The position numbers were made by a program, and so were the translations under genes. From a virus, in IMG/VR virus record IMGVR_UViG_3300025381_000024: a stretch of DNA of 46,576 nucleotides. One strand, written 5' to 3'. The notes under the pieces are model-generated. The model was given only the letters and a program-made list of their open reading frames with translations, had not been told where the DNA came from and made no database searches. Positions within the stretch are counted from its first letter, which is position 1. Every line of letters begins with the position of its first letter. Of this stretch, positions 11,501 to 35,737 are shown one piece after another.

Positions 11501-13377
11501 CAGTAACTATTGCCCTGGCATCTAGCGGTGTTACTGCTGGTTCTTATGGATCGGCTAGTACTGTACCGACTTATACAGTTAATGCTCAAGGTCAACTTAC
11601 AGCAGCTTCCAATACGACCATTTCTATTGCTCCTAGTCAGATTAATGCAACCATTCCGAATAGTGGATTGACCAATAGTTCAATCACTATTAATGGAAAT
11701 GCGGTCAGTTTAGGTGGATCAACTACTGTAACTGCTGATACCCCAAATGCTTTAACCATTGGAACTGGATTATCTGGAACATCTTTTAATGGTAGTTCTC
11801 CAGTAACCATTTCTATTTCAAATACTGCGGTAACTGCTGGAAGTTATGGTTCTGCAACTCAAGTTGGAACATTTACTGTTAATGCACAAGGTCAATTGAC
11901 CGCAGCTTCTAATGTCACTATCACCCCAGCAGTTACTTCGATTACTGGATTGGGTATTGGAATGGCTACTTTCTTAGCCACTCCAACAAGTGCAAACTTG
12001 GTTGCTACTGTAACCGATGAAACTGGTACTGGTTCTTTAGTATTTGCCAATACTCCAACTTTAGTTACCCCAATTTTGGGAACTCCTACTTCTGGCACTT
12101 TGACCAATTGCTCTGGACTTCCTTTAAGTACTGGGGTTACTGGTACTTTATCAGTAGGAAATGGCGGTACAGGAGTAACTTCTTCAAGCGGTGCTAATTC
12201 TGTAGTTTTAAGAGATAGCAATCAAAATGTATTTGCTAATAATTTCATACCAAATACAACATTTACAGCATCATCATCAACACCTGTTAATTTAACTGTT
12301 TCATCTGCTCAATATCAAGTAGTAACAGGCACAACTACTTCTCAAGTATTTAATATGCCTGATGCGACTACTTTGATTGTAGGCGATACTTATTATTTTA
12401 ATAATAATATTACTTATTCTTCTGTGCAAATTAATGCACATGATGGAACTACATCATTATTAGCATTACAAGCTGGTGGTGCTGCTCATTTAATTCTTTT
12501 AAGCAATAGCACTTCTAATGGGACTTGGGATATTCATTCTTATGTGCCAGCTTCAGTTTCATGGGGAAATGCAACTTTAAATTTTAATTCTGCAAGTAGT
12601 ATTTCAGGCTCTGTATCTTGGCAAGGTAATACTATAGGCATTGGTTATGGTGGTACTGGTATTACTTCTACACCTACCAATGGTCAATTATTGATTGGTA
12701 ATGGTACTGGTTACACCCTGGCAACCATTACTGCTGGTGCTGGTATCTCAGTCACTAATAGTTCTGGTGGCATCACCATTGCAGTTAATGGTACTGGTGA
12801 AGTAACTAGCTTCCAAACTAGCTTATCAGGGCTAACACCTAGCACCGCTACAGGCGGTGCAGTTACCCTGGCAGGTACTCTAGGGGCTGCATCTGGCGGT
12901 ACTGGAGCAACTACCCTTACTGGATATGTATATGGTAATGGCACTTCAGCCATGACCGCATCAACCACTATTCCTACAAGTGCTTTATCTGGAAACTTTG
13001 TAAGCACATTTAGTGCTGGCACTACTGGTCTAACACCCTCTACTGCGACTGCTGGTGCTATCACTTTAAGTGGTACTTTAGTAGTTGGAAATGGTGGTAC
13101 TGGAGTTGCAACTTTGACAGGCTTGGCTTATGGCAATGGCACTTCTGCTTTTACAGCAGCAACCGCAGCCCAAGTAGTTTCTGTAATAGGTTCTACAGCA
13201 GTAACCAATGCTACCAATGCTGCAAACTTAAACCTGGCTGCTGGTTCAGGATCAACAAACTATATTACTTTTGCTTCTTCTGCAACAGGAAATACAGCAC
13301 AATACACAAATACTGGACTTACTTACAATTACACCAATAATGCTATTACTGGGGGTATCTCAGGTGGCTCTTTTTAA
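8530..13377 (+). CDS. Giant tail fibre protein C (1615 aa) with long internal repeats
   Basis: It has the same N-terminal anchor module (MGILLFANQAQTTL...VRGQEGTVPRAWNRGDF..TAGT). It carries multiple repeated modules (SIAPSQINATIPNSGLTNSSITINGNAVSLGGSTTVTADTPNALTIGTGLSGTSFNGSSPVTI x2 plus a diverged copy, and TASTTIPTTALSGT.TNAQLANS x3). Its ATG overlaps the previous stop. Confidence 0.85.
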   Translation: MGILLFANQAQTTLALPVASTDTVIYVAAGTGSYFPAPSANQAVTITLVNATNNLVVEIVSCTNITGDALTVVRGQEGTVPRAWNRGDFVTNLMTAGTANSFSQIYGLNNALYSPHFANTLTDSGQVIAVPVNPTDLVNKQYADSISTGAAKYECQCATTGDITLSGLQTIDGYTTLAGDRVVVRAQANPAYNGIWVASTTAWARAADMEAWVQIPGATTFVQNGTLYAKTGWVAIVPEIGTIDVTPITWTQISGQGTYSAGTGLTLTGTQFSITNTGVTAGSYGTASYVPALFLNAQGQITSATNTPISIAPSQINATIPNSGLTNSSITIGSTSVSLGSTLTTLVGTSISGSTNTLTAIPNSALVNNSITINGNAVALGGSTTVTAVTPYALTIGTGLSGGSFNGSSAVTIALANTAVTAGSYGSAGSVATFTVNVQGQLTAANTTSIAISNTQVSGLGTMSTQNANNVAITGGTIQGVGLTIDSLDNTPIGSTTPSTAKFTTLSANSTVTLGNYTGYVYANGSSAITASTTIPTTALSGTVTNAQLANSSITINGDLVNLGGSVTVTADLPNSLTFNNSGSGASSPVVFNGATAYTISYNTLGASPLAGSTSLTTTGTITTGTWSGLFGAVSGANLTNLTAGNLTGTIPSTVLGNSTVYIGTTAVALNRASATLALTGITIPTLTIGTGLSGISYNGSTATTIALANTAVTAGSYGSASNTLEATVNGQGQLTALSSVAISIAPSQINATIPNSGLTNSSITINGNAVSLGGSTTVTADTPNALTIGTGLSGTSFNGSSPVTIAISNSGVTSGTYGNASTIPVITVNSQGQITSVSTQPTNAPAYQGTWNASTNNPTLTSSVGTQGYYYVVSTAGNTTLNGVSDWNIGDWAIFSGGAWEKIPGSNTESFTNLTTTNLAVTGLTGYMYANNTIGNVTASTTIPTTALSGTITNAQLANSTISGISLGSNLATLTIGTSLSGTSYNGGSAVTIALASSGVTAGSYGSASTVPTYTVNAQGQLTAASNTTISIAPSQINATIPNSGLTNSSITINGNAVSLGGSTTVTADTPNALTIGTGLSGTSFNGSSPVTISISNTAVTAGSYGSATQVGTFTVNAQGQLTAASNVTITPAVTSITGLGIGMATFLATPTSANLVATVTDETGTGSLVFANTPTLVTPILGTPTSGTLTNCSGLPLSTGVTGTLSVGNGGTGVTSSSGANSVVLRDSNQNVFANNFIPNTTFTASSSTPVNLTVSSAQYQVVTGTTTSQVFNMPDATTLIVGDTYYFNNNITYSSVQINAHDGTTSLLALQAGGAAHLILLSNSTSNGTWDIHSYVPASVSWGNATLNFNSASSISGSVSWQGNTIGIGYGGTGITSTPTNGQLLIGNGTGYTLATITAGAGISVTNSSGGITIAVNGTGEVTSFQTSLSGLTPSTATGGAVTLAGTLGAASGGTGATTLTGYVYGNGTSAMTASTTIPTSALSGNFVSTFSAGTTGLTPSTATAGAITLSGTLVVGNGGTGVATLTGLAYGNGTSAFTAATAAQVVSVIGSTAVTNATNAANLNLAAGSGSTNYITFASSATGNTAQYTNTGLTYNYTNNAITGGISGGSF

Positions 13378-13401
13378 ATATAATGGCTAAAAGGAATTAA
13401 T

Positions 13402-14724
13402 ATGGCTCAAAGCGGATTTTCCCCCATCCTGATTTATGGCAGTACTACTACTGGTAATACTCCATCTGCAAGCAATTTAACTACAACTTCTCTTGGAGTT
13501 GAACTTGCTATTAATGCTACTGATGGCAAATTATTCTATAAAGATAATGCTGGAAATGTTCAAACTTTAGCCACAAAAGCTACAGGTACTATTGGCGGTT
13601 CAAACACCCAAGTTCAATACAATAGCTCTGGCTTATTGGCTGGTTCTGCCAACATGGTATTTGATGGCTCTACATTGACTACCCTTAATTCTGCATACAC
13701 AGGCACACTTACTGGCGGTACAGGAGTAGTTAATCTAGGTTCTGGACAGTTTTATAAAGATGCTAGTGGTAATGTAGGTATTGGTACTAGTAGTCCTTCC
13801 GCACTTGGATTGCAAGTAACAAAAGGTTCTGGAGTTTCTGCTGGTATTTTATTTAGTAATGCAGCAAATAACTGGCAAATTAACACAGGTACAACTACCA
13901 ACTATTTAGCTTTTGTCGATAATCAATTTGCAGAGCGTATGCGTATTGACTCTAGTGGTAATGTAGGTATTGGTATTACTGCACCTACTGCTAGATTGCA
14001 TTTATCTACAGCATCAGGCTCAACTGCTTTAACAATGTCCACAAACAGCAATCAAAACAATAACTTCACTATTGTCAATGATGCAACCTATGGAATTTTT
14101 GCTTCAAACTATGGAAGCACAGGCGTAAAAGTTAAGTATGCTTTGCAAATGCCTGACAATTCAATGATTATTGATTCTAGCGGTTATGTGTATTTTGTTG
14201 GTTCAGGAACATCACCTTCATATTCACCTGCATCAGGTGTGCAAATATTAAATCTTGTTGGAAATACAGTAGGTGTTATTTCTATTGGTCATGCAAATGG
14301 AACTGCTAGTGGAAATAATTATGTAACTTTTGGATACAATTCAAGTGGTATTGGTTCTATTTCCCAAAACGGCACTACTGGCGTTCTTTATAATTTAACT
14401 TCTGATTACCGCCTTAAAGACAATGCCACACCATTAACAGGTGCTTCAGAATTTATTATGGCTTTGAAACCAAAATCTTGGGATTGGTGGGATGGCTCAG
14501 GTAAGGGTGTTGGCTTTATTGCTCATGAATTTATGGAAGTTGCCAAGTATTCAGGAAATGGTACAAAAGACGAGCTTGATGATGAAGGCAAGCCAAAATA
14601 TCAATCTATTCAGCCATCTTCCTCAGAAGTAATGGCAAATCTTGTAGCTTTAGTCCAAGAACAACAAGCCCTTATTACAACAATGCAAGCCAAACTAAAA
14701 GACGCTGGCATACTAGGATTCTAA
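13402..14724 (+). CDS. Tail fibre/spike protein D with a C-terminal intramolecular chaperone (peptidase S74-type) domain
   Basis: The C-terminus SDYRLKDNATPL...ALKPKSWDW...GFIAHEFMEV...YQSIQPS...LVALVQEQQALI fits the auto-cleaving endosialidase-chaperone domain pattern (SD.R.K ... GfIAqE ... coiled tail). The N-terminus is fibre-like. An AAGGA Shine-Dalgarno sequence lies upstream. Confidence 0.8.
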   Translation: MAQSGFSPILIYGSTTTGNTPSASNLTTTSLGVELAINATDGKLFYKDNAGNVQTLATKATGTIGGSNTQVQYNSSGLLAGSANMVFDGSTLTTLNSAYTGTLTGGTGVVNLGSGQFYKDASGNVGIGTSSPSALGLQVTKGSGVSAGILFSNAANNWQINTGTTTNYLAFVDNQFAERMRIDSSGNVGIGITAPTARLHLSTASGSTALTMSTNSNQNNNFTIVNDATYGIFASNYGSTGVKVKYALQMPDNSMIIDSSGYVYFVGSGTSPSYSPASGVQILNLVGNTVGVISIGHANGTASGNNYVTFGYNSSGIGSISQNGTTGVLYNLTSDYRLKDNATPLTGASEFIMALKPKSWDWWDGSGKGVGFIAHEFMEVAKYSGNGTKDELDDEGKPKYQSIQPSSSEVMANLVALVQEQQALITTMQAKLKDAGILGF

Positions 14725-19840: not shown

Positions 19841-19929
19841 ATAGGGTGGAGTCCCTATCTCTCACGAAAGGTCTGGCATTGCACCAGAAGGTAATTTTTG
19901 GGTGTACCACTCCCAGAAATAGGGACTCC
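19841..19929. other. Structured intergenic element: an 11-bp perfect closing stem enclosing two hairpins, with an alternative local hairpin
   Basis: GGAGTCCCTAT (19848-19858) pairs with ATAGGGACTCC (19919-19929). Inner hairpins are TCTGG-CATTGCA-CCAGA (19872-19888) and TGGG...CCCA (19899-19915). An upstream ATAGGG (19841-19846) can instead pair with CCCTAT (19853-19858). Confidence 0.6.
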
Positions 19930-22646: not shown

Positions 22647-22844
22647 ATGCTTGAATTTCCCCCTCAAGACAAAATTGAGGTCTATGCCAATGAAACAGGA
22701 TTTATTTGTTTTAGATGTGCAGGTGATCTTGAAAATACCAAAGAACAAATAGTTTGTTTGACCATCGGTCAATTTCGATCAGTCATTAAAAATGCCGACA
22801 AACTAATTTCACAAGCAGATGAAATTAGAAAGGCAATCCAATGA
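22647..22844 (+). CDS. Hypothetical protein (65 aa from ATG 22647)
   Basis: An AAGGA Shine-Dalgarno sequence lies 5 nt upstream of ATG 22647. The ORF-track start at 22614 is a non-ATG codon. Confidence 0.55.
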   Translation: MLEFPPQDKIEVYANETGFICFRCAGDLENTKEQIVCLTIGQFRSVIKNADKLISQADEIRKAIQ

Positions 22845-23533
22845 CATACAAAATTAAGAATTGGAATAAATTTCAACATTTCAAGGATCGTAGACCACCC
22901 TGGGTAAAACTTTATCGAGATTTGCTGGATGATTTAGACTGGTTTGAACTTGATCCAGTATCTTCTAAAAATTTAATTAATTTATGGCTCATCGCAAGTG
23001 AATATGATGGATATTTGCCATCATTAGATATTCTATCTTTTAGATTAAGGCTTAAAAAACAAGAAGTTACAAGAATTTTATCTTGTCTTGGTCATTGGTT
23101 GGAACAAGATGATATCAAGGTGATATCAGAAGGATATCAAAGTGATAGTACAGAGACAGAGACAGAGACAGAGACAGAGACAGAGACAGAGACAGATATA
23201 TTCGTGGACTCAAAGATTCCACCATGCCCCCACCAAGCCATTATTGATATTTATCATCAAACATTGCCAGAGTTACCAAGAGTGATTTCTTGGAATAAAA
23301 CAAGGGAATCCCATTTAAAGCAACGCTGGAGAGAATTGTTTACTGAATTTGAATGCAAAAGTTCGGAAGAAGCCCTGGAATGGTTTAGGAATGATTTTTT
23401 TCAATTTATTAAAAGTTCCAAGTTTTTAACTGGGAAAACACATTCAAAGGATAGGAGACCATTTTTAGCAGATTTGGAATGGGTTATTAAACCAACCAAC
23501 TTTACAAAAATCATCGAAAGGAAATACCTATGA
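22841..23533 (+). CDS. Putative replication initiator/replisome organiser (O-like), two domains joined by a (TE)7 linker
   Basis: The conserved phage-type N-terminus NWNKFQHFKDRRPPWVKLYRDLLDD is followed by phased DNA repeats and an in-frame hexanucleotide repeat in the middle of the gene, as in lambda O. The functional assignment is tentative. Confidence 0.45.
   Translation: MTYKIKNWNKFQHFKDRRPPWVKLYRDLLDDLDWFELDPVSSKNLINLWLIASEYDGYLPSLDILSFRLRLKKQEVTRILSCLGHWLEQDDIKVISEGYQSDSTETETETETETETETDIFVDSKIPPCPHQAIIDIYHQTLPELPRVISWNKTRESHLKQRWRELFTEFECKSSEEALEWFRNDFFQFIKSSKFLTGKTHSKDRRPFLADLEWVIKPTNFTKIIERKYL
23111..23150. repeat. Four 11-bp phased direct repeats (consensus ARGTGATATCA), iteron-like
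   Basis: GATATCA starts at 23111, 23122 and 23133, and GATAGTA at 23144, an exact 11-bp spacing. Confidence 0.7.
23150..23197. repeat. Hexanucleotide tandem repeat (ACAGAG)x7 plus a partial unit, encoding (Thr-Glu)n
   Basis: Read directly: acagag repeated from 23150 and ending acagat. It translates to TETETETETETETETD. Confidence 0.9.
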
Positions 23534-24036
23534 AATCCAAATTAGTCAAATTTTCAAATCCTGAAGAATCAAACCAAGAAAGTCAGCCTTTATCCTGCGG
23601 GGCTTATGGATGCGGTCTGCTTGGCACAATTTCTGCTGGAACAAATGGAGAAAGCAAGTTTTACTGTCGTTTTCATTATGGTTTAAAACCGCATAAAAAT
23701 GACCAGGTAACTGCCAGAATCCATCAAAATAGTCAATTGCTTGATCTTTTTGATATGTGTACATCCCCAGATAGGTTTTTTAAAGGAAACAATAAAACAA
23801 CTTTTTTTGAGTTGGCAGATACAAAAGTATCTCAAGGTCTTTTTGACATGGGTTTGCAAGAACTACATATTCCTAAAAACTTGCTCAAAACTCGCAAAAA
23901 CATCATGGCAGAACTTGATAAGCGCACTTTTGTAATTGATGAAGATGGTATGCCTATGCCTAAAGCAATGGATGTAGGAAACCATTATTTAGACAAAATT
24001 AACTACAAAGGAACAAATGTAGGATTTGACAAATGA
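23530..24036 (+). CDS. Hypothetical protein (168 aa), Cys-rich N-terminal segment
   Basis: ATGA-coupled to the upstream gene. It contains CGAYGCG...KFYCRFHYG. Possibly a helicase-loader-position gene, with no motif support. Confidence 0.6.
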   Translation: MKSKLVKFSNPEESNQESQPLSCGAYGCGLLGTISAGTNGESKFYCRFHYGLKPHKNDQVTARIHQNSQLLDLFDMCTSPDRFFKGNNKTTFFELADTKVSQGLFDMGLQELHIPKNLLKTRKNIMAELDKRTFVIDEDGMPMPKAMDVGNHYLDKINYKGTNVGFDK

Positions 24037-24470
24037 AAGGCAACGATAAACCCTACCTAGAAAGGATTAAAACCAACCTAGGAGAGGAGTTGTTCATTTC
24101 CTATTGCAATGCCAAGGGATACAAAATAAATCGCCTAGGATTCGATGAGAGGGCTGGATATGTGGAAAATTTCTTTAATCTCAATCCATTATTAAGAAAT
24201 TTGCCTGATTTTGTGGTCAATACCCCTAATGAAACTTTTGTAGTGTGTGTAAAAGGCACAGCAAACCTTAAAAAACAAGAATTTGATCTTCTTCCTTTGA
24301 TGATTGAATGGTTTAGCAGCAAAAAAGCACCCTTGGTTTATGCTTTTTGTTTTGATGATCGAGAAAAACCTGCCCTTGTTTACCCAGAAAAGGTCATTGA
24401 ACTGTATCAAAAAGCCAAAGAAAAAAGATATGAAAGCGATGGAGTTATCTATCGAAGTCTTGCTGTTTAA
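24033..24470 (+). CDS. Hypothetical protein (145 aa), possible degenerate PD-(D/E)XK fold
   Basis: GEELF...LPDFVV...FVVCVKG resembles the E...PD...(D/E)xK layout but has Cys in the acidic position. The call is weak. Confidence 0.55.
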   Translation: MKGNDKPYLERIKTNLGEELFISYCNAKGYKINRLGFDERAGYVENFFNLNPLLRNLPDFVVNTPNETFVVCVKGTANLKKQEFDLLPLMIEWFSSKKAPLVYAFCFDDREKPALVYPEKVIELYQKAKEKRYESDGVIYRSLAV

Positions 24471-24488
24471 TGGTTTTTAGCTTATAAT
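24460..24488 (+). promoter_or_regulatory. Near-consensus sigma70 promoter TTGCTG-17 nt-TATAAT in front of the alarmone hydrolase gene
   Basis: TTGCTG at 24460-24465, a 17-nt spacer, and TATAAT at 24483-24488, followed by the leader TACGAAAGG (24502-24510). Confidence 0.6.
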
Positions 24489-24516
24489 ACTTATGTTGGA
24501 TACGAAAGGTAATAAA

Positions 24517-24999
24517 GTGATTGAACCGATACCATTTGCAGGATTAATTGAGTTGGATGTGGGATTTATCCCTGCCAGCTTAGATCGTGCAATTGCCATA
24601 GCTGCTAGTGCTCATGCTGGTCAAGTTGACAAAGCAGGTGAGCCTTATATTTTGCATCCTTTAAGAGTAATGTTGTCTGTACCACCAGAAGCCAGGATTG
24701 CTGCGGTATTGCATGATGTTTTAGAAGATAGCGATATTAGCTCTGACGATTTATTGGCTGAAGGATTTAGCCCTGAAAATTTGGCTGTTTTAGATGCTGT
24801 CAGTCGTAGACCTGGTGAGTCATACCATTCATTTATTGTTCGATGCTCTAAAAACCCATTGGCTAGAATCGTTAAATTGGCTGATTTGCGAGATAACTGC
24901 GATATGAGTAGATTGGCAAATCCATCTTTGGCTGATTGGGCAAGATACGAAAAATATATGGAAGCAATTGTTTATTTGCGTGGCGATGAATTGTGCTAA
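24517..24999 (+). CDS. HD-domain small alarmone hydrolase (SpoT/Mesh1-type (p)ppGpp/(p)ppApp pyrophosphohydrolase)
   Basis: AASAHAGQVDKAGEPYILHPLRV, AAVLHDVLEDS and VKLADLRDN match the RelA/SpoT hydrolase-domain motifs (AH.GQ.RK.GEPYI.HPL.VA, LHDV.ED, KLADRL.N). The start is probably GTG 24517, 7 nt after AAAGG; the ORF-track ATG at 24493 lies at the predicted transcript start. Confidence 0.8.
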   Translation: MIEPIPFAGLIELDVGFIPASLDRAIAIAASAHAGQVDKAGEPYILHPLRVMLSVPPEARIAAVLHDVLEDSDISSDDLLAEGFSPENLAVLDAVSRRPGESYHSFIVRCSKNPLARIVKLADLRDNCDMSRLANPSLADWARYEKYMEAIVYLRGDELC

Positions 25000-25027: not shown

Positions 25028-25291
25028 ATGATGGAAAAGAAAAGTTCAAATGCTCTGGTCAAGGTCAGGGCAGTTTTTTTATCGGAAGATATGCCATTTA
25101 CTTTAGCGGTTTTGGCACAAAAAACCAATTTAAAAGCACCTGAAGTATCAATGGCTTTGTGTCATTTGAGAAAGCAACGATATGTCACTAGGCGATTAAT
25201 TGCAAATCATTCTGGCAAAGGTCGTAAAAGTGTTTGGGCTTATTACTATCACCCTCTAAGGGTTAGTGTAAGTGAACTTACAGAAGCATAA
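25028..25291 (+). CDS. Small protein with a possible winged-helix DNA-binding fold (87 aa)
   Basis: FTLAVLAQKTNLKAPEVSMALCHLRKQRYVTRR looks like a helix-turn-helix plus wing. The call is weak. Confidence 0.5.
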   Translation: MMEKKSSNALVKVRAVFLSEDMPFTLAVLAQKTNLKAPEVSMALCHLRKQRYVTRRLIANHSGKGRKSVWAYYYHPLRVSVSELTEA

Positions 25292-27076: not shown

Positions 27077-27553
27077 ATGGATAAACAAGTTAAATTTTCT
27101 AAAATATATGGACTCTCAGATAAAAAAACTGGAGAGATAATCTATATTGGAAAATCGGATGATCCAAAAAAAAGATTAAAACAACATATTTATGACTCAA
27201 AAAGGCGAAATACAAAATTACATCAATGGATTAGAAAAAATCCAAATTCAGTAGAATTGATTATATTAGCCTGTGCTATAAGTAATGATTGGCAATCCCT
27301 TGAAAAACAAATGATTGCTCAATATAAAGAATCTGGAAAACTTCTTAATATTGCCAAAGGCGGAAATCAACCATTTAGAGATGAAAATGATTCATTTAAA
27401 AGAAAAGCATGGATTATTAAAAATTTCATGGCTAGACTTGTCAATGAATGGAAAAATATACCAACCACCGAAAAAATTGAAGAAAGAAAAGCCATGCTTA
27501 GATATGCTGCATGGAAAAAACCAGAATTATTTGGTGAATGGAAGTATTTATGA
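27077..27553 (+). CDS. GIY-YIG endonuclease (free-standing homing-endonuclease-like)
   Basis: KIYGLSDKKTGEIIYIGKSDDPKKRLKQH gives the GIY...YIG...R motifs. The gene is inserted just before terS and its stop overlaps the terS ATG. Confidence 0.75.
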   Translation: MDKQVKFSKIYGLSDKKTGEIIYIGKSDDPKKRLKQHIYDSKRRNTKLHQWIRKNPNSVELIILACAISNDWQSLEKQMIAQYKESGKLLNIAKGGNQPFRDENDSFKRKAWIIKNFMARLVNEWKNIPTTEKIEERKAMLRYAAWKKPELFGEWKYL

Positions 27554-29287: not shown

Positions 29288-31579
29288 ATGTCTGATGTGA
29301 TGGTGAATAATACTTATCTGGGTGGTGAATTAATGAACCTGCTCAGTTCTGAGAATATCCAACCAGGTTCACAGGCAGGTTATGAATTATGCAAAATCAT
29401 TTGGGAATATCACCCATTAGGCGGTAAATTAGTTGAAAAGCCAGTTCGCTTGGCTCTTTCAAAACCCAGAATTATTACTGTAGATGCAGAACCAAAGGAA
29501 ATGTTGGTCGAGGCATTTCAAAAAGAATGGGAAAAATTAGGTGCTACTAATCATATTCGTGATGTTATGTTTATCAATCGCACTTATGGGGCTGGTGGAA
29601 TTGTTGTGGGTGCTGATAAGATTCCTACTACTGAGCCTATTGATCCTTGGCAGCTTCCTGATCTCAACATTTATTTTAATCAGTTAGACCCATTAAACAT
29701 GGCTGGTTCGATTGTTACAAACCAGAACCCAAATGCGCCAGACTTTCAAAAACCTCTTGCATACACTACTGCTGCTGGTCAGCCTTATCATCCTAGCCGT
29801 AGCGTGGTGGTATTCAATGGCACTCCTATCTACTTGTCTTTCCAATCTAGTGCTTTCGGCTATACAGGTCGAAGTGTGTTTCAAAGGGCATTGTATCCAT
29901 TAAAGTCTTTTGTTCAGTCGATGATTACCGATGACCTGGTGACTTTTAAATCAGGTCTGATTATTGCCAAGCAAAAACCTGCTGGGTCTATTGTCAATCG
30001 CTTAATGCAAACTGCTGCTGGTATTAAGCGCACTTATTTGCAAGAAGGCGGTACTGGCAATGTGCTATCAATTGATATTGATGAAGAAATCAACTCCATT
30101 GATTTGACCAATACTGCAACTGCAATGACAACTGCCAGAGATAACATCATTGCCAATATTGCTGCTGCTTCCGATGTCCCTGCAATGCTACTCAAAGATG
30201 AAGCATTTACTCAAGGCTTTGGTGAAGGTACTGAAGATGCAAAAGCCATTGTCCAGTACATTGATGGCATTCGAGTTGACATGGAATCTTTGTTCCGATT
30301 CTTTGACAAGATCGTAATGCACCGAGCCTGGAATAAAGAATTATTTGAATCTATTCAATCTGCCTATCCAGAGCAATATGGCAAGATGACCTATGAGCAA
30401 GCATTCTATTCATGGAAAAATGCTTTCAAACCTGAGTGGGAATCACTCATGGAAGAACCGCCAAGCGAAAAAGTCAAAGTTGATGACATTAAGCTAAAAG
30501 GTGTTACTGAAGTACTTCGTACAATGCTGCCAGTTATTGATCCACAAAATAGAGCAAATTTAATTCAATGGGCTGCTGACAATTTGAATGAAATGCCAGA
30601 TATGTTCCAAAGTTCTATGCAATTGGATGCTGATGCAATCGCTGAATATGAAATTCCAGAACAAGAACTTAAAAACTTACCTAGATTGGATGCTTATTTT
30701 GCAAAGGGGGATTGGGCAAACCCCACCCCAAAAGCTGATGCTTTCATAGAACAAGACCATCCCAGGGATGCGGATGGAAAATTTACTGCTGGCGCAGGTA
30801 GTAGCGCAGCAACCACTACTATGCCTGGTGGTCGAGCACAAGCCCCATATACTGTGGCAGCTAAATCTATTCCACAACCACCAGAGCCACCAAAGGCAGC
30901 AAATAAACCTACAGCAGCAGAGCCACCTAAAGTTCCAACCGCCAAAAGCGCAAAAGAGCATTTAGAAGGAAAGTTGCAAAAGAAAGATGTAGATCGCTTA
31001 CCAAAAGAAAAACGCAAAGAATTTGAAGAAATGTACCAAAGGGCTGCCCAAAACAAAAACAAGTTTGATGAGACCAATGCCCAGATCGCTAAAGAACTTG
31101 GTGGTAAAGCTGCGGTTGTGCCACTCAAGGGTTCAGAAAGAGCAGTTGATAAGATCACCAAGTCTTACAATAATGACCCATCCAAAATTAAAGATTTGCT
31201 CAGAACCACTATCGAGATTAATTCAGTAAAAGATGTGCCAAGTGCTATCGAGAAGATTAAAGCCCAATATGGTGAGCCAGCAAAATTAAGAAATCTTCTT
31301 GATCCTAATGTCGATTCATTAGCAGGGTCTGGATACCGAGACATCAATATGGTGGTTGAAGTCAATGGTTCTTATGCTGAGATTCAAGTAAATATGCCCC
31401 AGATGCTAGAAGCAAAAGAAAAAGGGCATAAGTACTATGAAGAAGTTCGTATTATTGTCGAGGATGCTGAAGTTCAAAAAAGACCATTAACTGCTGATGA
31501 GCAGGAAAAGGTTAATGCAGCCAACAATAAGATGAAAGAACTTTATGATGCTGCCTGGGAATCCATCACCAAAGCCTGA
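29288..31579 (+). CDS. Portal protein fused to a C-terminal RelA/SpoT-like nucleotidyltransferase domain
   Basis: The ~480-aa N-terminal core is portal-like by position after terL and by size. It is followed by HPRDADGKF, a Pro/Ala/Lys-rich linker, and a C-terminal domain with PLKGSERAVDKI, DLLRTTIEI, SGYRDINMVV and AEIQVNM...GHKYYE. Confidence 0.7.
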   Translation: MSDVMVNNTYLGGELMNLLSSENIQPGSQAGYELCKIIWEYHPLGGKLVEKPVRLALSKPRIITVDAEPKEMLVEAFQKEWEKLGATNHIRDVMFINRTYGAGGIVVGADKIPTTEPIDPWQLPDLNIYFNQLDPLNMAGSIVTNQNPNAPDFQKPLAYTTAAGQPYHPSRSVVVFNGTPIYLSFQSSAFGYTGRSVFQRALYPLKSFVQSMITDDLVTFKSGLIIAKQKPAGSIVNRLMQTAAGIKRTYLQEGGTGNVLSIDIDEEINSIDLTNTATAMTTARDNIIANIAAASDVPAMLLKDEAFTQGFGEGTEDAKAIVQYIDGIRVDMESLFRFFDKIVMHRAWNKELFESIQSAYPEQYGKMTYEQAFYSWKNAFKPEWESLMEEPPSEKVKVDDIKLKGVTEVLRTMLPVIDPQNRANLIQWAADNLNEMPDMFQSSMQLDADAIAEYEIPEQELKNLPRLDAYFAKGDWANPTPKADAFIEQDHPRDADGKFTAGAGSSAATTTMPGGRAQAPYTVAAKSIPQPPEPPKAANKPTAAEPPKVPTAKSAKEHLEGKLQKKDVDRLPKEKRKEFEEMYQRAAQNKNKFDETNAQIAKELGGKAAVVPLKGSERAVDKITKSYNNDPSKIKDLLRTTIEINSVKDVPSAIEKIKAQYGEPAKLRNLLDPNVDSLAGSGYRDINMVVEVNGSYAEIQVNMPQMLEAKEKGHKYYEEVRIIVEDAEVQKRPLTADEQEKVNAANNKMKELYDAAWESITKA

Positions 31580-31761
31580 AAAGCCGATGAATTAATTGGT
31601 AGCATAAAGACACCCTTCATATCAAAGGGTTGAGGTTCTCCATTGATCCAAGCTGCAACCATTGGAATACCATCACCAGCATTGACTGATACTGGATATT
31701 CATCTTCTGCTGTTACATAGAAAATAGCCGATGGACTAATCTCATATTTGCCTATTTGCAT
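31543..31761 (-). CDS. Hypothetical protein (72 aa from ATG 31761), convergent with and overlapping the portal 3' end
   Basis: An AAAGGAG Shine-Dalgarno sequence lies 5 nt before the second ATG (31761). A TGATACAAT extended -10-like sequence (minus strand, about 31780-31788) lies upstream. The 3' end overlaps the portal ORF by 37 nt. Confidence 0.5.
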   Translation of the reverse strand: MQIGKYEISPSAIFYVTAEDEYPVSVNAGDGIPMVAAWINGEPQPFDMKGVFMLPINSSAFQALVMDSQAAS

Positions 31762-31813
31762 ATAGACTCCTTTCATTAAATTGTATCATACATCTACCCC
31801 TATAGGATAGAGC

Positions 31814-31838
31814 AAAAAGCCCACAAGGGGCTTATTTT
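31814..31838 (-). terminator. Rho-independent terminator of the leftward island operon (hairpin flanked by A and T runs, so possibly bidirectional)
   Basis: The minus strand reads AAGCCC-CTTGT-GGGCTT followed by TTTG. On the plus strand it is preceded by AAAAA. Confidence 0.6.
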
Positions 31839-32028
31839 AATAGCGATTCTTTAATAATCTTTTTGCTGCTGCCAGGCGAAGATCATCCGCTTCAGAATTA
31901 AGACCAGGCAAAATAGATAATGCTCGAATCATATTCTTTAATGCAACTTTGTCAGAATTGCCAGCAATTCGCAAATCCGCATACTTCGCAGGATTATTAA
32001 TTTTCAAATCTTCATAATAGCTAGACAT
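31837..32028 (-). CDS. Hypothetical protein (63 aa), island
   Basis: The CACGAAAGG leader (32037-32045, minus strand) lies 8 nt upstream of the ATG. Confidence 0.6.
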   Translation of the reverse strand: MSSYYEDLKINNPAKYADLRIAGNSDKVALKNMIRALSILPGLNSEADDLRLAAAKRLLKNRY

Positions 32029-32046
32029 TTTATTTCCCTTTCGTGG

Positions 32047-32277
32047 TTATCTTGGAATTTCCAAAATCATATTGCCATCCATGATTTCAAACAAAATCGC
32101 TTTGGCTCTGTTCAAACTCTGTCTGGCTCTTTCATTCGCACCCACAGCCAATTCCTCTTGAGCATCACTCATAAGACCAGCAACAACAATACCAGCCCCA
32201 CCCAACTTGTAGCTGGCTGATGATCTGATCTGCGCTATAAACTGCTCAATGTCGCAACCATACATTTCCTGACTCAT
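32047..32277 (-). CDS. Small protein, paralogue of 19501-19746
   Basis: 76 aa. About 55-60% identical by eye to the early-operon copy, with an invariant MSDAQEE.AVG..ERARQSLNRAK core. Confidence 0.7.
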   Translation of the reverse strand: MSQEMYGCDIEQFIAQIRSSASYKLGGAGIVVAGLMSDAQEELAVGANERARQSLNRAKAILFEIMDGNMILEIPR

Positions 32278-32420
32278 GCTGCACCCCTTTCTTGAAATTG
32301 CTGGATAACTGCCCTAGCAGCAGCAGCCCTGCCCATTTGACCTTTTGCCAAAGCCAAAATCAAAATCCCCTGGGCTTGGGCAATACTGAAAACCTCGTAT
32401 CCATACAAAGACAAACTCAT
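32274..32420 (-). CDS. Small Ala-rich protein (48 aa), first gene of the leftward island operon
   Basis: MSLSLYGYEVFSIAQAQGILILALAKGQMGRAAAARAVIQQFQERGAA. The CACGAAAGG leader lies 8 nt upstream. The stop overlaps the next ATG. Confidence 0.5.
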   Translation of the reverse strand: MSLSLYGYEVFSIAQAQGILILALAKGQMGRAAAARAVIQQFQERGAA

Positions 32421-32455
32421 TTCAAACTCCTTTCGTGATTAACTACTACACTTAC

Positions 32456-32484
32456 ATATTAATACTTATTAGGTATAAGCACAA
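32456..32484 (-). promoter_or_regulatory. Leftward island promoter (TTGTGC-17 nt-TAATAT)
   Basis: The minus strand reads TTGTGCTTATACCTAATAAGTATTAATATGTAAGTGTAGTAGTTAATCACGAAAGGAGTTTGAAATG. Confidence 0.55.
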
Positions 32485-32540
32485 GGACTATTTCACTATT
32501 TGTTGTATTTGTGCAAAAACAACACTTTAGATAAATAGAT

Positions 32541-32569
32541 TTGACACCTATACTAAATAGGAATAATAT
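32541..32569 (+). promoter_or_regulatory. Rightward island promoter (TTGACA-17 nt-TAATAT)
   Basis: A consensus -35, a 17-nt spacer and a good -10, followed by the leader ...GTAGTCTTAATTAACCACGAAAGGG and ATG 32609. Confidence 0.65.
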
Positions 32570-32608
32570 AAGAATGTAGTCTTAATTAACCACGAAAGGG
32601 AATTAAAA

Positions 32609-32782
32609 ATGCAGATCGACCAAGCCATTGCAATTATTGAGGAATATCGCCAGGACTGTGGAATTGGGTTCTTGGAAGCCTTGATTGAAATTCGTCAGAA
32701 TCCAGAGGAATTTAGCGAGCAGCAATTGATCGCTTATCGGGTTTTTATGAATGATGCTCGTCAGATGTTTCAACCAGCTTGA
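32609..32782 (+). CDS. Hypothetical protein (57 aa), island
   Basis: MQIDQAIAIIEEYRQDCGIGFLEALIEIRQNPEEF... The CACGAAAGG leader lies 9 nt upstream. It is below the ORF-track cutoff. Confidence 0.55.
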   Translation: MQIDQAIAIIEEYRQDCGIGFLEALIEIRQNPEEFSEQQLIAYRVFMNDARQMFQPA

Positions 32783-32791
32783 GGGGGTTTT

Positions 32792-32989
32792 ATGAATTTA
32801 TTGATTGCTGAAAAAGTTGGCGGTTCTTTTCAAAAAATCGGTGTCATGAATGGCGATGAGTTGCTTGCAGATTGTTTGCTTGCTGTCGGTCTTGCCTACA
32901 ATGCCAAAAGGTTTTTTGAAGGAGATTCGGCAGCAGTTTCTCTGGATTATCAGTTAGAGGGTATTGAGTACAGAGTTTTAAAGTTTTAA
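32792..32989 (+). CDS. Hypothetical protein (65 aa), island
   Basis: A GAGGGGG Shine-Dalgarno sequence lies upstream. The gene is compactly placed. Confidence 0.55.
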   Translation: MNLLIAEKVGGSFQKIGVMNGDELLADCLLAVGLAYNAKRFFEGDSAAVSLDYQLEGIEYRVLKF

Positions 32990-33015
32990 GTAGTTCAACC
33001 ACGAAAGGAGTTGTT

Positions 33016-33258
33016 ATGAAATACCAATTAGATGTTAGTCGTGATGTAGATGCGGATGACGATGCCTATATGCTCTGGCTGCCATTCGGCTTTAGATTTT
33101 CAGATGATTTAGTTCATGTTCGAGGTTTTGACACTATGGCTGAGATTCGTCAAGCTGCCAAAAATGATGTTATTCCCTGCGATTGTGAAGATTGCAAGTT
33201 GAATATCAAAGAATTGGCTGCCAAGAAAGCATCTTTTATGAAGGAAATGCTGAAGTAG
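33016..33258 (+). CDS. Hypothetical protein (80 aa), island
   Basis: The CACGAAAGG leader (33000-33008) lies 7 nt upstream of the ATG. Confidence 0.6.
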   Translation: MKYQLDVSRDVDADDDAYMLWLPFGFRFSDDLVHVRGFDTMAEIRQAAKNDVIPCDCEDCKLNIKELAAKKASFMKEMLK

Positions 33259-33265
33259 CAAAAAT

Positions 33266-33290
33266 GCAACAACCCTAAAAAAGTTGTTGC
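33266..33290 (+). promoter_or_regulatory. 8-bp hairpin GCAACAAC-(9 nt)-GTTGTTGC overlapping the -35 of the next promoter
   Basis: Read directly. It is not followed by a T run, so it is not a classical terminator. Confidence 0.35.
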
Positions 33291-33314
33291 ATTAATACCT
33301 AATAGGTATATACT
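33287..33314 (+). promoter_or_regulatory. Rightward island promoter (TTGCAT-16 nt-TATACT)
   Basis: It is followed by GAAAGTGTAGTAATTAACCACGAAAGGAAAATTATG. The ATACCTAATAGGTAT and GTGTAGTA.TTAA.CACGAAAGG segments are shared with the 32456 promoter unit on the other strand. Confidence 0.55.
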
Positions 33315-33347
33315 GAAAGTGTAGTAATTAACCACGAAAGGAAAATT

Positions 33348-33680
33348 ATGAAAGAAGTTGAAATCTGGGCTGGCAAAAAAGTCATGGCATACCAGGATGC
33401 TGACTTGGTTGAAAAAATGCCCTATATCAAAGCTGCTGAGTCTGTCTGGTATCAAAGCTGGTTGGACAATGGCGGTGAGGATGTCGGTAGCTGCTGCGGT
33501 GGCAAAGCGATTCGGATTTACTACTTGGGCAAAGGAAAAAGAAATGTTGTAGAAAAAAGCATTGTGCCTTGTAGCTTTGTTCAGGGAAATGTGGCTGCTG
33601 CGAAATCAGTTGCTCCTGCTTTGGAATTCTTGGCTGCTCATGGGATTGTCGGTGAGTATTACGATGGTTGGATGGATTGA
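33348..33680 (+). CDS. Hypothetical protein (110 aa), island
   Basis: The CACGAAAGG leader lies 6 nt upstream. Confidence 0.6.
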   Translation: MKEVEIWAGKKVMAYQDADLVEKMPYIKAAESVWYQSWLDNGGEDVGSCCGGKAIRIYYLGKGKRNVVEKSIVPCSFVQGNVAAAKSVAPALEFLAAHGIVGEYYDGWMD

Positions 33681-33685
33681 TTAAT

Positions 33686-33699
33686 GCCCCTTCGGGGGC
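33686..33699 (+). promoter_or_regulatory. GCCCC-UUCG-GGGGC tetraloop hairpin (copy 1), fused to the CACGAAAGG leader
   Basis: ATGCCCCTTCGGGGGCTTCACGAAAGGAAT. There is no T run, so it is more likely a processing, stability or attenuation element than a terminator. Confidence 0.5.
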
Positions 33700-33717
33700 T
33701 TCACGAAAGGAATCAAA

Positions 33718-33969
33718 ATGGCAATGGCTTATAAAGAAATGGTTGTGTTTGCGAAATATGTTTATAGCTTCTATGGCGATGGCGGTATTTATGATATGGG
33801 AGTTCCCTATGAAATCATTAAGCAAGCTATCCGCTTTTTGCAATCAAAGGATGGTCGCAAGTATCGCTACGGTATTCCTGTGTGTGGCGATTCTGTAGAT
33901 CGTGAGCATATTCGCATGATCTTGGAAGAAGAATATGGGTATTGTGAAAAAAAGCTACAAGCTGCTTGA
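33718..33969 (+). CDS. Hypothetical protein (83 aa), island
   Basis: The leader CACGAAAGG lies 7 nt upstream. Confidence 0.6.
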   Translation: MAMAYKEMVVFAKYVYSFYGDGGIYDMGVPYEIIKQAIRFLQSKDGRKYRYGIPVCGDSVDREHIRMILEEEYGYCEKKLQAA

Positions 33970-33993
33970 CATTATCCTAAATTAGTATATTAT
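33966..33993 (+). promoter_or_regulatory. Rightward island promoter (TTGACA-16 nt-TATTAT)
   Basis: A consensus -35 overlaps the stop of the previous gene. It is followed by ...GTTGTAGTG... and the AAGGAG Shine-Dalgarno sequence of ATG 34035. Confidence 0.5.
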
Positions 33994-34034
33994 TAAGTTG
34001 TAGTGTTTATTAATCATCAAATAAGGAGTTAATC

Positions 34035-34532
34035 ATGGGTTCAATTAGTAGTCATGCTGGTGCTGCCAAAATGGTTCGCCAGTTTATGAAAGCCAAAGGC
34101 ATCGCTGGTCAAGTTCGCAGCAAAAGCTATAGCATGGGTAGCAGCATTCATGTGTATGTTCAGGATTTGCCCCCAGCGCAATATGCTGAGTTGAGCAGCT
34201 ATGTCAGTCAGTTTGAGTATGGTCACTTCAATGGCATGGAAGATATTTATGAGATCAGCAATCGCAGGGATGACATTCCCCAAGTGAAATATGCCTTTGT
34301 TGACAATAAAATGAGTGATGCCTTGGGTGAAAAGATTTACCAGTTCATGAAAGGATATTACTCTGGCATGGAAGGTGCTCCAGATAGTTTCAAAGATGCC
34401 CATAGTTTTTACAACATGAGATTCAATGGGTATGCAAGTCACTTGGTTTACAAGTTATTTGCTGGTGGTTATATGCACAATGAATATTGGATTTCAGTTG
34501 GTGTCATTGCTCCAGAAGTAGAAGCTGCTTAA
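34035..34532 (+). CDS. Hypothetical protein (165 aa), island
   Basis: Strong AAGGAG Shine-Dalgarno sequence. No motif I can name with confidence. Confidence 0.65.
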   Translation: MGSISSHAGAAKMVRQFMKAKGIAGQVRSKSYSMGSSIHVYVQDLPPAQYAELSSYVSQFEYGHFNGMEDIYEISNRRDDIPQVKYAFVDNKMSDALGEKIYQFMKGYYSGMEGAPDSFKDAHSFYNMRFNGYASHLVYKLFAGGYMHNEYWISVGVIAPEVEAA

Positions 34533-34537
34533 TTGAT

Positions 34538-34551
34538 GCCCCTTCGGGGGC
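34538..34551 (+). promoter_or_regulatory. GCCCC-UUCG-GGGGC tetraloop hairpin (copy 2), fused to a CATGAAAGG leader variant
   Basis: ATGCCCCTTCGGGGGCTTTCCATGAAAGGGAAT, a near-repeat of 33683-33712. Confidence 0.5.
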
Positions 34552-34571
34552 TTTCCATGAAAGGGAATAGT

Positions 34572-34748
34572 ATGATAGATAAATTTTTAACTTTAGAAAA
34601 TGCCAAGGCTTATGCTGCAACTCAGGACAAATTGCTATTTTGCGAATATTTGACAGACTTGCCATTCCAAAGCAAAGCATTAGAAAAGTTTGAATATGAA
34701 ATGTTTGTGTTTGCCCTTAATTTAGGACTTGTATCAGAAGATGACTAA
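34572..34748 (+). CDS. Hypothetical protein (58 aa from ATG 34572), island
   Basis: ATG 34572 lies 6 nt after the AAAGGG leader. The upstream in-frame extension in the ORF track would run through the hairpin. Confidence 0.5.
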   Translation: MIDKFLTLENAKAYAATQDKLLFCEYLTDLPFQSKALEKFEYEMFVFALNLGLVSEDD

Positions 34749-34950
34749 AACTAGAAAAAGGGGTGGTCTTGGTACTACCCCAAAACCAGAAGAAATTATT
34801 GCAGCCAGGGCTGCATTATCTCAATCCAAAGCTGCATCTTTAATATATACTACCCAAGCAAGATGGTCAGATTATGAAACTGGCAAAAGTCGTATGCACC
34901 CTGCTGCCTGGGAACTATTTTTATTAAAGATACAGAATGACATTTTTTGA
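34741..34950 (+). CDS. XRE-type helix-turn-helix protein (69 aa)
   Basis: LSQSKAASLIYTTQARWSDYETGKSRMHPAAWELFLL fits the HTH_XRE pattern (q..aA.l.g.s...is.wE.G.r.p). It overlaps both neighbours. Confidence 0.6.
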   Translation: MTKTRKRGGLGTTPKPEEIIAARAALSQSKAASLIYTTQARWSDYETGKSRMHPAAWELFLLKIQNDIF

Positions 34951-35737
34951 AGTTCTTACTGCTGCCATTAATGACTTTATTGAATATGGCTTTGATTCTC
35001 AAAGTCGAGTAGACAATTGGCTTAAAAAGATTAAAGAAGCAGCAGAAAAGGCTTTGATGTCAGAAGCCCAGATGCAAAAAGAAATGGAAAAGTCTTTAAA
35101 TGCAGCCTTTTCTCGCCTGGTGACTAAAGGCGGTCTAGTCAATAAAGAAGTATCCAAATATGACATTGACCGATTAAAGCCAAAACTTAGGTCTGAACTA
35201 GATCGCAGAATCATGGCTTCTGCAAACTTGATTAAATACAATCGAGAGCAAAGTATTACAGATGTGCTCAGAAGATTTGAAGGTTGGGCTACATCCATTC
35301 CTAAAGGCGGTTCACTCGCAGTAGACCGCAATAAAGAAAAACAAAATATTAAAAAGTCTTTAGCAAAAATGCCTTTTAATCAAAGGCGAGTTGTAATAGA
35401 TCAAACCCATAAATTGATTTCTAACATTAATGATATTGTCGCTGTTGATAATGGCGCAATTGCTGGTAAATGGCATTCTCATTGGAAACAAATTAATTAT
35501 GATTACCGCAAAGATCATAAAGAAAGGGATGAAAAGGTTTATGTCATTAGAGGTAATTGGGCAAGCGAAAAAGGATTTATTAAAGCCACTAATGGATATA
35601 CTGATGACATTACCACTCCAGGTGAAGAAGTATACTGTCGCTGTTATTACAAATATATTTACAGTTTGCGAAAGATGCCTGAAGAAATGCTTACAAAAAA
35701 AGGCAAACTAGCGTTACAATCGTCAAAAATACTGTAA
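34937..35737 (+). CDS. MuF / SPP1 gp7-like minor head (head morphogenesis) protein
   Basis: The C-terminal GKWHSHW...TPGEEVYCRCYYKYIY resembles the P..H.NCRC end of the MuF family. 266 aa, at the head of the capsid-assembly genes. Confidence 0.7.
   Translation: MTFFEVLTAAINDFIEYGFDSQSRVDNWLKKIKEAAEKALMSEAQMQKEMEKSLNAAFSRLVTKGGLVNKEVSKYDIDRLKPKLRSELDRRIMASANLIKYNREQSITDVLRRFEGWATSIPKGGSLAVDRNKEKQNIKKSLAKMPFNQRRVVIDQTHKLISNINDIVAVDNGAIAGKWHSHWKQINYDYRKDHKERDEKVYVIRGNWASEKGFIKATNGYTDDITTPGEEVYCRCYYKYIYSLRKMPEEMLTKKGKLALQSSKIL

Follow-up and report, generated by a model that had tools for sequence, protein, structure and literature searches.

A predicted (p)ppApp hydrolase of the Aph1 type in a phage with a portal-fused Tas1/Apk-like synthetase domain: a probable self-immunity enzyme

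Results

The aph gene and its setting

Here, we describe aph, a gene on a 46,576-nt stretch of viral DNA (IMG/VR virus record IMGVR_UViG_3300025381_000024; this whole stretch is hereafter called the window), and provide computational evidence that one and the same genome encodes a predicted (p)ppApp-specific breaker, the aph product, and a predicted (p)ppApp maker, a Tas1/Apk-like synthetase domain fused to the portal protein (Table 1). The aph gene sits in the replication/nin region, 4.3 kb upstream of the portal gene, and about ten genes, including those for NinB, a GIY-YIG endonuclease and terminase, lie between the two. Its upstream neighbour, an open reading frame (ORF) of 145 amino acids (aa; orf145, 24033-24470), travels with aph in the close clade and had no matches in Pfam, PHROGs or PADLOC. 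Homologues of orf145 are found at other positions and on the opposite strand in the related loci L032, L035, L038, L076 and L082 (L numbers denote loci, P numbers homologous proteins or protein clusters).

Direct reading of the sequence placed the aph ORF from GTG 24517 to the TAA at 24997-24999 (160 aa), and the initial annotation of this stretch was correct in its coordinates and in the three hydrolase motifs that it listed, AHAGQVDKAGEPYILHPLRV, LHDVLED and KLADLRDN, all of which fall inside this ORF. Translation could begin at ATG 24493 or at GTG 24517. We assign the start to GTG 24517, as originally annotated, because the ORFs of relatives begin there and the upstream ATG is unusable in two of them. 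The homologues P0002-P0004 start exactly at the equivalent codon, which is ATG in L001, whereas the counterpart of ATG 24493 is out of frame in L001 and directly followed by TAA in L009. The sequence AAAGG is located 7 nt 5' of the GTG. Codons 24517-24576 specify an N-terminal extension of about 20 residues (IEPIPFAGLIELDVGFIPAS; beginning IEPIPFAGLIELD…) that the closest clade alone (P0002-P0005) shares; the bulk of the family, at ~140 aa, does not have it.

Table 1. Position of the features under discussion, in the numbering of the window
Feature	Position	Strand	Description	Basis
Promoter-like element	24460..24488	+	TTGCTG (24460-24465), 17-nt spacer, TATAAT (24483-24488)	Sequence read
Leader ACTTATGTTGGATACGAAAGGTAATAAA	24489..24516	+	Conserved; holds the Shine-Dalgarno-bearing motif [CT]ACGAAAGG (24501-24509), 7 nt 5' of the GTG	
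aph	24517..24999	+	Aph1-family adenosine 3'-pyrophosphohydrolase, i.e., predicted (p)ppApp hydrolase, 160 aa	Sequence searches, AlphaFold2 model
Portal domain (Phage_portal_3)	29288..30658	+	Residues 1-457 of the 763-aa fusion	PF06381 E=4.5e-16; phrog_146 E=2e-50
Linker	30659..30967	+	DHPRDADGKF, then Pro/Ala-rich low-complexity stretch	Alignment
Predicted Tas1/Apk-type (p)ppApp synthetase (toxSYNTH) domain	30968..31579	+		6OX6 matches
72-aa ORF	31543..31761	-	Convergent, with a 37-nt overlap at the 3' end of the toxin gene; closes a leftward four-gene unit (32420 to 31543)	
MuF-like head-morphogenesis gene	34937..35737	+	Far edge of the cargo interval	phrog_324 E=6e-26
Leader-motif sites, forward	19863, 24501, 25991, 32591, 33000, 33333, 33702	+		
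Leader-motif sites, reverse	19763, 22140, 32045, 32437	-		

Family, specificity residues and fold of the hydrolase

The aph product matched Pfam HD_4 (PF13328; 29.6 bits against a cut-off of 27.2), NCBIfam TIGR00691 spoT_relA (E=1e-13, in the N-terminal half only) and the PHROGs family phrog_990, labelled 'metal-dependent phosphohydrolase' (E=1e-47). In the PDB, it best matched the B. caccae (p)ppApp hydrolase Aph1 (7SMG, E=2.4e-30), to which it is 48% identical over 132 aligned residues; long RelA/SpoT homologue (RSH) enzymes followed at ~1e-10 and MESH1 at ~1e-3. The HD_4, phrog_990 and 7SMG matches bear out the earlier designation as a stand-alone HD-type small alarmone hydrolase (SAH) of about 160 aa. 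The family is large, with 3,475 matches in a word-index search, mostly of 140-145 aa, and a homologue is encoded by 181 phage records in INPHARED.

Aph1 hydrolyses pApp, ppApp and pppApp, with ppGpp hydrolysis undetected, and all 12 of 12 purified Aph1 homologues hydrolysed ppApp (Ahmad et al., PMC10083569). Six residues (D24, R96, D116, R119, K133, Y134) set the Aph1 family apart from (p)ppGpp hydrolases, and a D24R/R119A double mutant was required for gain of ppGpp activity (PMC10083569). All six are identical in the aph product (D38, R109, D129, R132, K146, Y147); among 51 homologues, D38, R109, R132 and Y147 are invariant and D129 is nearly so. The metal ligands H47, H66-D67 and D123, which correspond to Aph1 H33, H53-D54 and D110, are likewise invariant in these 51 homologues. 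At the positions where T. thermophilus Rel contacts guanine (R43-R44-S45), the aph product has D38-K39-A40, as Aph1 has D24-K25-A26. The catalytic His and Asp residues, whose misalignment would have spoken against the initial annotation, align in sequence, profile and predicted structure.

An AlphaFold2 (AF2) monomer model built on the homologue alignment (predicted local distance difference test score, pLDDT, 89.8) has a compact eight-helix HD fold with no added C-terminal helix, the final helix ending at residue 156 of 160. In a Foldseek search against the PDB, the four chains of 7SMG ranked at the top with a template modelling (TM) score of 0.93 (target-normalised) and a root-mean-square deviation (rmsd) of 0.9 Å over 135 columns. 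The runners-up were MESH1 structures (TM ~0.64, rmsd 3-4 Å), and MESH1, SpoT and PaSAH overall ranged from TM 0.55 to 0.7 at rmsd 3-9 Å. The N-terminal extension is predicted to be disordered (pLDDT < 60). As Aph1 is a tetramer built via its N- and C-termini (PMC10083569), the 20 extra residues could affect an Aph1-type tetramer interface. By its sequence and modelled fold, the aph product is an HD-domain SAH of the Aph1 type and not a generic (p)ppGpp hydrolase, and it very probably destroys (p)ppApp.

A Tas1/Apk-like synthetase domain on the portal protein

The portal fusion is encoded by a single ORF (29288-31579, 763 aa), of which residues ~575-760 matched the P. aeruginosa toxin Tas1 (6OX6) already as a single sequence (E=4.2e-16). 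With a profile of 14 sequences, the match to 6OX6 improved to E=1e-24, the next PDB match being RelA at 2e-3; no CapRel- or FaRel2-type chain was matched in this PDB profile search, and Pfam RelA_SpoT hit the portal C-terminus under its cut-off (E=0.0019). Putative catalytic residues were taken from family-invariant columns, and all of these are present (203-aa domain numbering: K54/R58/K62, D76/R79, G122-Y-R-D125, E138/Q140, K150/H154/Y157). The resemblance to Tas1 is apparent in several strings (domain/Tas1: PLKGSERAVDK/PIKSRERAMQK, IKDLLRTT/IKDLARNT, EIQVN/EIQVN, GHKYYEE/GHKYYED). The RSH-like domain that had been noted on the portal protein is thus present, and its identity can be refined to a Tas1/Apk-like (p)ppApp synthetase as opposed to a CapRel-like enzyme.

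In the relatives L012, L014 and L015, the linker and the synthetase form a separate protein of 306-350 aa that begins 10 nt or less after a portal of ~470 aa. Since portal and linker-synthetase are encoded separately there, the clade of the window carries a true in-frame fusion, which has lost about 35 N-terminal residues of the free linker-synthetase proteins of relatives. An exhaustive search retrieved 2,102 homologues of the synthetase domain; it was used in place of a word-index search, which returned 14 proteins only and missed the full-length portal fusions. Portal–Apk fusions occur in at least four 50%-identity clusters (P0147, P0149, P0150, P0151), and Apk-like domains also occur in proteins of 2,000-4,450 aa.

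A small convergent gene beside the toxin

The gene that carries the synthetase domain, hereafter the toxin gene, is overlapped at its 3' end by the convergent 72-aa ORF. A homologous convergent ORF (65-72 aa) overlaps the 3' end of the Apk gene in every locus with that flank that we inspected, eight loci among them, and diverges in step with the toxin. Its AF2 model (pLDDT 92.4) comprises five strands and a C-terminal helix. A Foldseek search of this model against the PDB, including the Tas1–Tis1 entry 6OX6, gave no match with E<1, and IapK of phages Pmp13 and phiARI0462, run with phmmer against the ORFs of all six reading frames of the window, gave none either. We therefore rejected a Tis1/IapK-like identity for the 72-aa ORF, which finds a match neither in sequence nor in fold. 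A PDB search with 13 ORFs flanking the toxin gene and aph yielded no Tis1 match either, the sole match being that of an XRE-type regulator (ORF 34729-34950, to 7xi5). The 72-aa ORF may encode a toxin-binding immunity protein, a candidacy suggested only by its linkage to the toxin gene.

Co-occurrence of hydrolase and toxin domain among relatives

We scored 80 IMG/VR loci whose portals are 74-100% identical for the presence of the toxin domain and of a hydrolase, and considered a locus fully covered if it included 5.2 kb or more of sequence 5' of the portal gene and continued through MuF. All seven fully covered loci with the toxin domain encode a hydrolase (none lacks one), whereas of the 12 without the toxin domain one (L054) encodes a hydrolase and 11 have none. 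The association is significant by Fisher's test (p=1.6e-4; with L014 counted as a toxin-positive exception, 7/8 and p=7.7e-4), but the p-values overstate independence because the compared loci are related phages. The close relatives L001 and L003 retain the layout of the window, with hydrolases 75% and 99% identical, respectively, and a fused portal of 759 or 763 aa in both.

An Aph1-type hydrolase gene in the nin region is found in the clade of the window, in L015 and in L025. In other toxin-bearing relatives, which have no Aph1-type gene, the cargo interval contains, beside the toxin, a gene for a MESH1-like SAH (3NR1, E=6e-30; for example, L029 14676-15227, L012 12890-13435 and L076 14316-14861), which has RK where Aph1 has DK. 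That one activity is provided by distinct proteins from distinct places in the genome speaks for a functional requirement and against hitch-hiking, and the two hydrolase types imply repeated recruitment of this activity.

The aph gene behaves as a one-gene cassette, in agreement with the moron-like character proposed for it initially. In L064, a winged-helix gene that in the window comes after aph begins within 12 nt of the end of the orf145 homologue; this relative lacks the 557-bp cassette of −10, leader and aph and also lacks the toxin, and its portal gene is directly followed by that for MuF. L064 is the only locus that gives a clean comparison of insertion boundaries, as orf145 is mostly displaced or on the other strand elsewhere.

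Signals upstream of aph

The initial annotation ascribed to aph a private near-consensus promoter and a special leader of this phage. The element TTGCTG-17-TATAAT lies where it was reported, and its −10 hexamer matches the consensus at 6/6 positions with a spacer of 17. The −35-like hexamer, by contrast, matches TTGACA at 3/6 positions, overlaps the last codons and the stop of orf145 and is not kept in relatives: in L001 and L009 the spacer between the two genes is 11 nt shorter, with nothing −35-like at the correct distance. The element was below threshold in a sigma-70 scan of the region and is not among its listed sites, and promoter-like sites are less numerous in the region than in its shuffles (22 versus 33.9). 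The label 'near-consensus' thus overstates the element. The block CTATAATACTTATGT…ACGAAAGG, on the other hand, does not vary among four phages whose neighbouring coding DNA is only ~70-75% identical, which indicates that the −10-like box and the leader are under selection.

The leader is a genuine family within this phage. The aph copy is invariant in L001, L007 and L009, and the exact sequence TACGAAAGG occurs once in the window (24501-24509), while the family [CT]ACGAAAGG counts 11 copies. When one mismatch was allowed, 17 matches compared with 6.0 expected, a number that none of 100 shuffles equalled, and a start codon lies 6-9 nt 3' of the motif at 10/11 sites. The copy at 19863(+) has no ORF behind it and faces the unit of 19763(-). 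TTGnnn-17-TAnAAT-like elements and a common TAATACTT / TGTAGT stretch precede several leader sites. A strict composite pattern of −35, −10, leader and start recovered two sites only (24460 + and 22185 −), and we therefore describe the promoter family qualitatively.

Just 3' of aph, a terminator-like hairpin with a T-run (25051-25082) lies within the 5' end of the winged-helix ORF 25028-25291. It could represent the end of the aph transcript, a site of read-through attenuation or a chance match.

The cargo interval and other features of the genome

The interval between the portal and MuF-like genes (31580-34936 in the window) contains the leftward four-gene unit that ends with the 72-aa ORF and small rightward ORFs, each with its own leader. 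It also contains an LPD29-like ORF (34035-34532) and the XRE-type helix-turn-helix ORF mentioned above (7xi5, E=1e-10). In the toxin-free relatives L018, L019, L020 and L064, the portal gene is directly followed by the MuF-like gene. As the toxin, other cargo or nothing is found at this place among relatives, we regard the interval as a cargo hot spot. L017 carries other cargo after its portal gene (11416-14232), consisting of a 222-aa protein headed by EHPRDADGKF and a 715-aa protein whose C-terminus is ADP-ribosyltransferase-like by eye (YLARG … SSFSTDY … NENEVVV). The same motif heads this different cargo, which suggests that DHPRD…GKF is a common carrier module for interchangeable effectors.

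A 736-aa ORF directly after MuF (35747-37957) combines a NUDIX domain (E=4e-16) with DUF2213/Pa193_gp24 and is kept in L012, L014 and L015; it adds a further nucleotide-pyrophosphate hydrolase domain, here on a probable head protein. The GIY-YIG gene (27077-27553) lies between the genes for a RecA-dependent nuclease and the small terminase, is absent from this place in L001 and is probably a mobile homing endonuclease; in L004, an HNH gene is located upstream of the GIY-YIG position, in the small-ORF block after NinB. A 230-aa ORF (22841-23533), whose homologue in L007 matches DUF1376, includes a (Thr-Glu)n run (TETETETETETETE) encoded by a hexanucleotide repeat (23142-23285). Homologue lengths of 226-232 aa among relatives suggest a variable microsatellite in this ORF.

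Pfam scans of the larger ORFs yielded no integrase, no tRNAs were found and Rfam and PADLOC scans had zero matches. A DNA search against phages returned short patches only. Related loci were found in contigs of metagenome-assembled genomes that are binned inconsistently (Bacteroidetes, Mucilaginibacter, Methylococcaceae), in addition to one prophage-like locus of Acetobacteraceae with 49% identity.

Discussion

The aph product shares with B. caccae Aph1 a single HD domain of ~140 core residues, the metal ligands, the specificity signature and a near-identical predicted fold, and in both cases the picture includes a (p)ppApp synthetase toxin, which in the aph phage is a predicted domain on a head protein. 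Aph1 protects cells from Apk toxins (PMC10083569). Unlike Aph1, the aph product carries the clade-specific 20-residue N-terminal extension, predicted to be disordered, and its gene lies outside the toxin operon as a one-gene cassette with its own −10 and leader.

The closest functional analogues are the tripartite Apk2–IapK–Aph1 toxin–immunity modules of temperate phages, in which the toxins are MuF polymorphic toxins (PMC10083569, PMC12226406, PMC5576092) and the hydrolases give non-specific cross-immunity (PMC10083569, PMC12226406). We confirmed the order toxin gene, iapK (~70 aa) and aph1 in phages Pmp13 and phiARI0462. As in these modules, a (p)ppApp synthetase domain and the hydrolase reside in the same element, a small gene of ~70 aa is tightly tied to the toxin, and the product-degrading hydrolase is present in most, but not all, genomes. 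The carrier, however, is the portal (Phage_portal_3), with MuF as a separate gene 3.4 kb downstream. The small gene is convergent, overlaps the toxin gene and lacks similarity to IapK and Tis1, whereas iapK of the modules lies downstream on the same strand. Finally, aph is located 4.3 kb upstream of the portal gene, in contrast to the modules, where the hydrolase gene directly follows the immunity gene in one operon. The toxin domain itself is far closer to Tas1/Apk1 (E=4e-16) than to Apk2 of Pmp13 or phiARI0462 (E=0.005 and 0.33).

Of the proteins with a solved structure, Tas1 (Apk1) of the P. aeruginosa type VI secretion system pair Tas1–Tis1 (6OX6) is most closely related to the C-terminal domain of the portal fusion. 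It is delivered by a PAAR domain and the secretion system, and immunity is conferred by Tis1 alone, with no dedicated hydrolase. The FaRel–ATfaRel systems of toxic small alarmone synthetases (toxSAS; PMC7229694, PMC11782079) likewise counter a (p)ppApp toxin by a product-degrading SAH and a toxin-binding protein, but they are chromosomal three-gene operons with a free-standing toxin, as opposed to the structural-protein fusion and unlinked hydrolase described here. Enzymatic domains on head proteins, presumed to be packaged and delivered together with DNA, are a feature of the portal and MuF fusions and polyvalent proteins treated in the cited sections of Iyer et al. 2017 (PMC5512222), which note RelA/SpoT domains in MuF fusions and polyvalent proteins. 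The portal fusions given in those sections carry 2H, PBECR and InPase domains, with no RelA/SpoT–portal fusion among them and no hydrolase partner discussed. We found no description of a portal–Apk fusion paired with a hydrolase in targeted literature searches. We therefore regard aph as a further member of the Aph1 family, within a system that would work like Apk2–IapK–Aph1 but lacks the MuF carrier, an IapK/Tis1-like neighbour and operon linkage.

We propose that the main role of aph is enzymatic immunity against the phage's own portal-fused (p)ppApp synthetase, a reading to which we assign a probability of about 0.65. If it acts as its homologues Tas1 and Apk2 do, the synthetase domain on the portal would move pyrophosphate from ATP onto ATP or ADP, thereby forming (p)ppApp and draining ATP; pyrophosphate transfer and ATP depletion by toxins of this type are summarised elsewhere (PMC11782079, PMC10083569). 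The domain could work inside the cell either during assembly or once it has entered with the virion, as head-protein-fused effectors have been proposed to be delivered with DNA (Jamet et al., PMC5576092; cited sections of Iyer et al., PMC5512222). The hydrolase would remove the 3'-pyrophosphate from pppApp, ppApp and pApp to give ATP, ADP and AMP, with little or no activity on (p)ppGpp, and would thus reverse the toxin product, while the convergent 72-aa protein might block the enzyme directly. Its own conserved −10 and leader and its place in the replication/nin block make it probable that aph is transcribed separately from the late head operon, and possibly earlier. The hydrolase could then be present before the portal accumulates or a virion-delivered domain arrives.

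The computation shows that the aph product belongs to the Aph1 family and keeps its catalytic and specificity residues, that a Tas1-like domain is encoded alongside it and co-occurs with a hydrolase across relatives, and that aph behaves as a cassette; we infer the enzyme activities, the toxicity and delivery of the toxin, the timing of expression and the role of the 72-aa ORF. The comparison of loci (7/7 with the toxin domain versus 1/12 without it) favours the option, raised in the initial annotation, that aph supplies the antidote for the portal-borne domain. Several points weigh against self-immunity. The whole analysis is computational. As aph is part of another transcription unit and 4.3 kb away from the toxin, the link between the two rests on co-occurrence. 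Both kinds of exception exist: L014 has the toxin, and the hydrolase was not found in its 21 kb, whereas L054 has an Aph1-type gene and no toxin. Most Aph1 homologues are reported not to lie near a toxin (PMC10083569), and the domain, being attached to a dodecameric portal, may never be at work in a cell as a free toxin.

Some of these points would suit a role in counter-defence, in which the hydrolase mainly neutralises host toxSAS enzymes, via either the (p)ppApp of FaRel-type toxins or the pyrophosphorylated tRNA of CapRel/FaRel2-type toxins, and its connection to the portal is secondary. Aph1-type hydrolases work on the product and hence protect against any (p)ppApp synthetase (PMC12226406, PMC10083569), the toxin-free L054 keeps an Aph1-type gene, the 181 INPHARED records with homologues were counted irrespective of toxin status, and a gene that lies in the replication/nin region and has a −10 and leader to itself would be appropriate for early counter-defence. 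Among close relatives, however, aph shows a strong association with the toxin domain of the phage itself and no other association, and other relatives supply the activity by an unrelated hydrolase type beside the toxin. Counter-defence is compatible with self-immunity because product hydrolases cross-protect universally (PMC12226406), but as the primary role it is less economical, given how aph is associated with the toxin of the phage itself, and in that capacity we consider it unlikely.

Far less probable are two readings that detach aph from (p)ppApp. The HD_4 and TIGR00691 spoT_relA matches, the latter in the N-terminal half, and the long RSH hydrolase domains as next PDB matches (E~1e-10) would fit an enzyme that cleaves host (p)ppGpp like SpoT or MESH1 and keeps transcription and translation going. 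The initial annotation had listed such a block of the host stringent response among its options, but this conflicts with the Aph1 signature and is very unlikely: D38-K39-A40 replaces the R43-R44-S45 of Rel, R132 is present, the equivalent of one of the two residues that both had to be substituted in Aph1 for ppGpp activity (PMC10083569), and neither MESH1 nor SpoT fits the model nearly as well as Aph1 does. We would be similarly surprised if aph were a chance passenger encoding a nucleotide-salvage or housekeeping HD phosphohydrolase for another substrate, with no tie to alarmones or to the portal domain. The mosaic nature of the region, with orf145 displaced or on the other strand in several relatives, and the unspecific PHROGs label agree with such a passenger, yet the full Aph1 signature and near-identical fold speak against another substrate, and the non-random association with the toxin domain and the conserved upstream signal speak against chance.

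It is tempting to extend self-immunity to a virion-borne '(p)ppApp pulse', although we regard this extension as doubtful. The synthetase domain, tethered to the portal or released at the Pro/Ala-rich linker, would pass into the cell or act there and briefly collapse the ATP pool or purine synthesis, the hydrolase and the 72-aa protein would end or contain the pulse, and DHPRD…GKF would serve as a head-targeting signal for interchangeable cargo. If true, such a pulse could shut down the host or block competitors, and the 72-aa protein would represent a family of toxin-binding immunity proteins unrelated to Tis1 and IapK, with both containment genes transcribed independently.

Few Aph1 homologues are known next to MuF or portal genes (PMC10083569), and what (p)ppApp synthetase toxins carried by phages do physiologically has been stated to be unresolved (PMC12226406). 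The six-residue Aph1 signature can sort phage genes that are annotated as 'HD/metal-dependent phosphohydrolase'. The pairing of toxin and hydrolase is restricted neither to MuF carriers nor to genes linked in an operon, and surveys confined to gene neighbourhoods will therefore overlook pairs of this kind. This group of phages offers natural variation: the toxin domain may be part of the portal protein, a protein by itself or missing, its partner hydrolase is of two types at two positions, and the small convergent gene is always beside the toxin. This variation could make the role of phage (p)ppApp toxins tractable.

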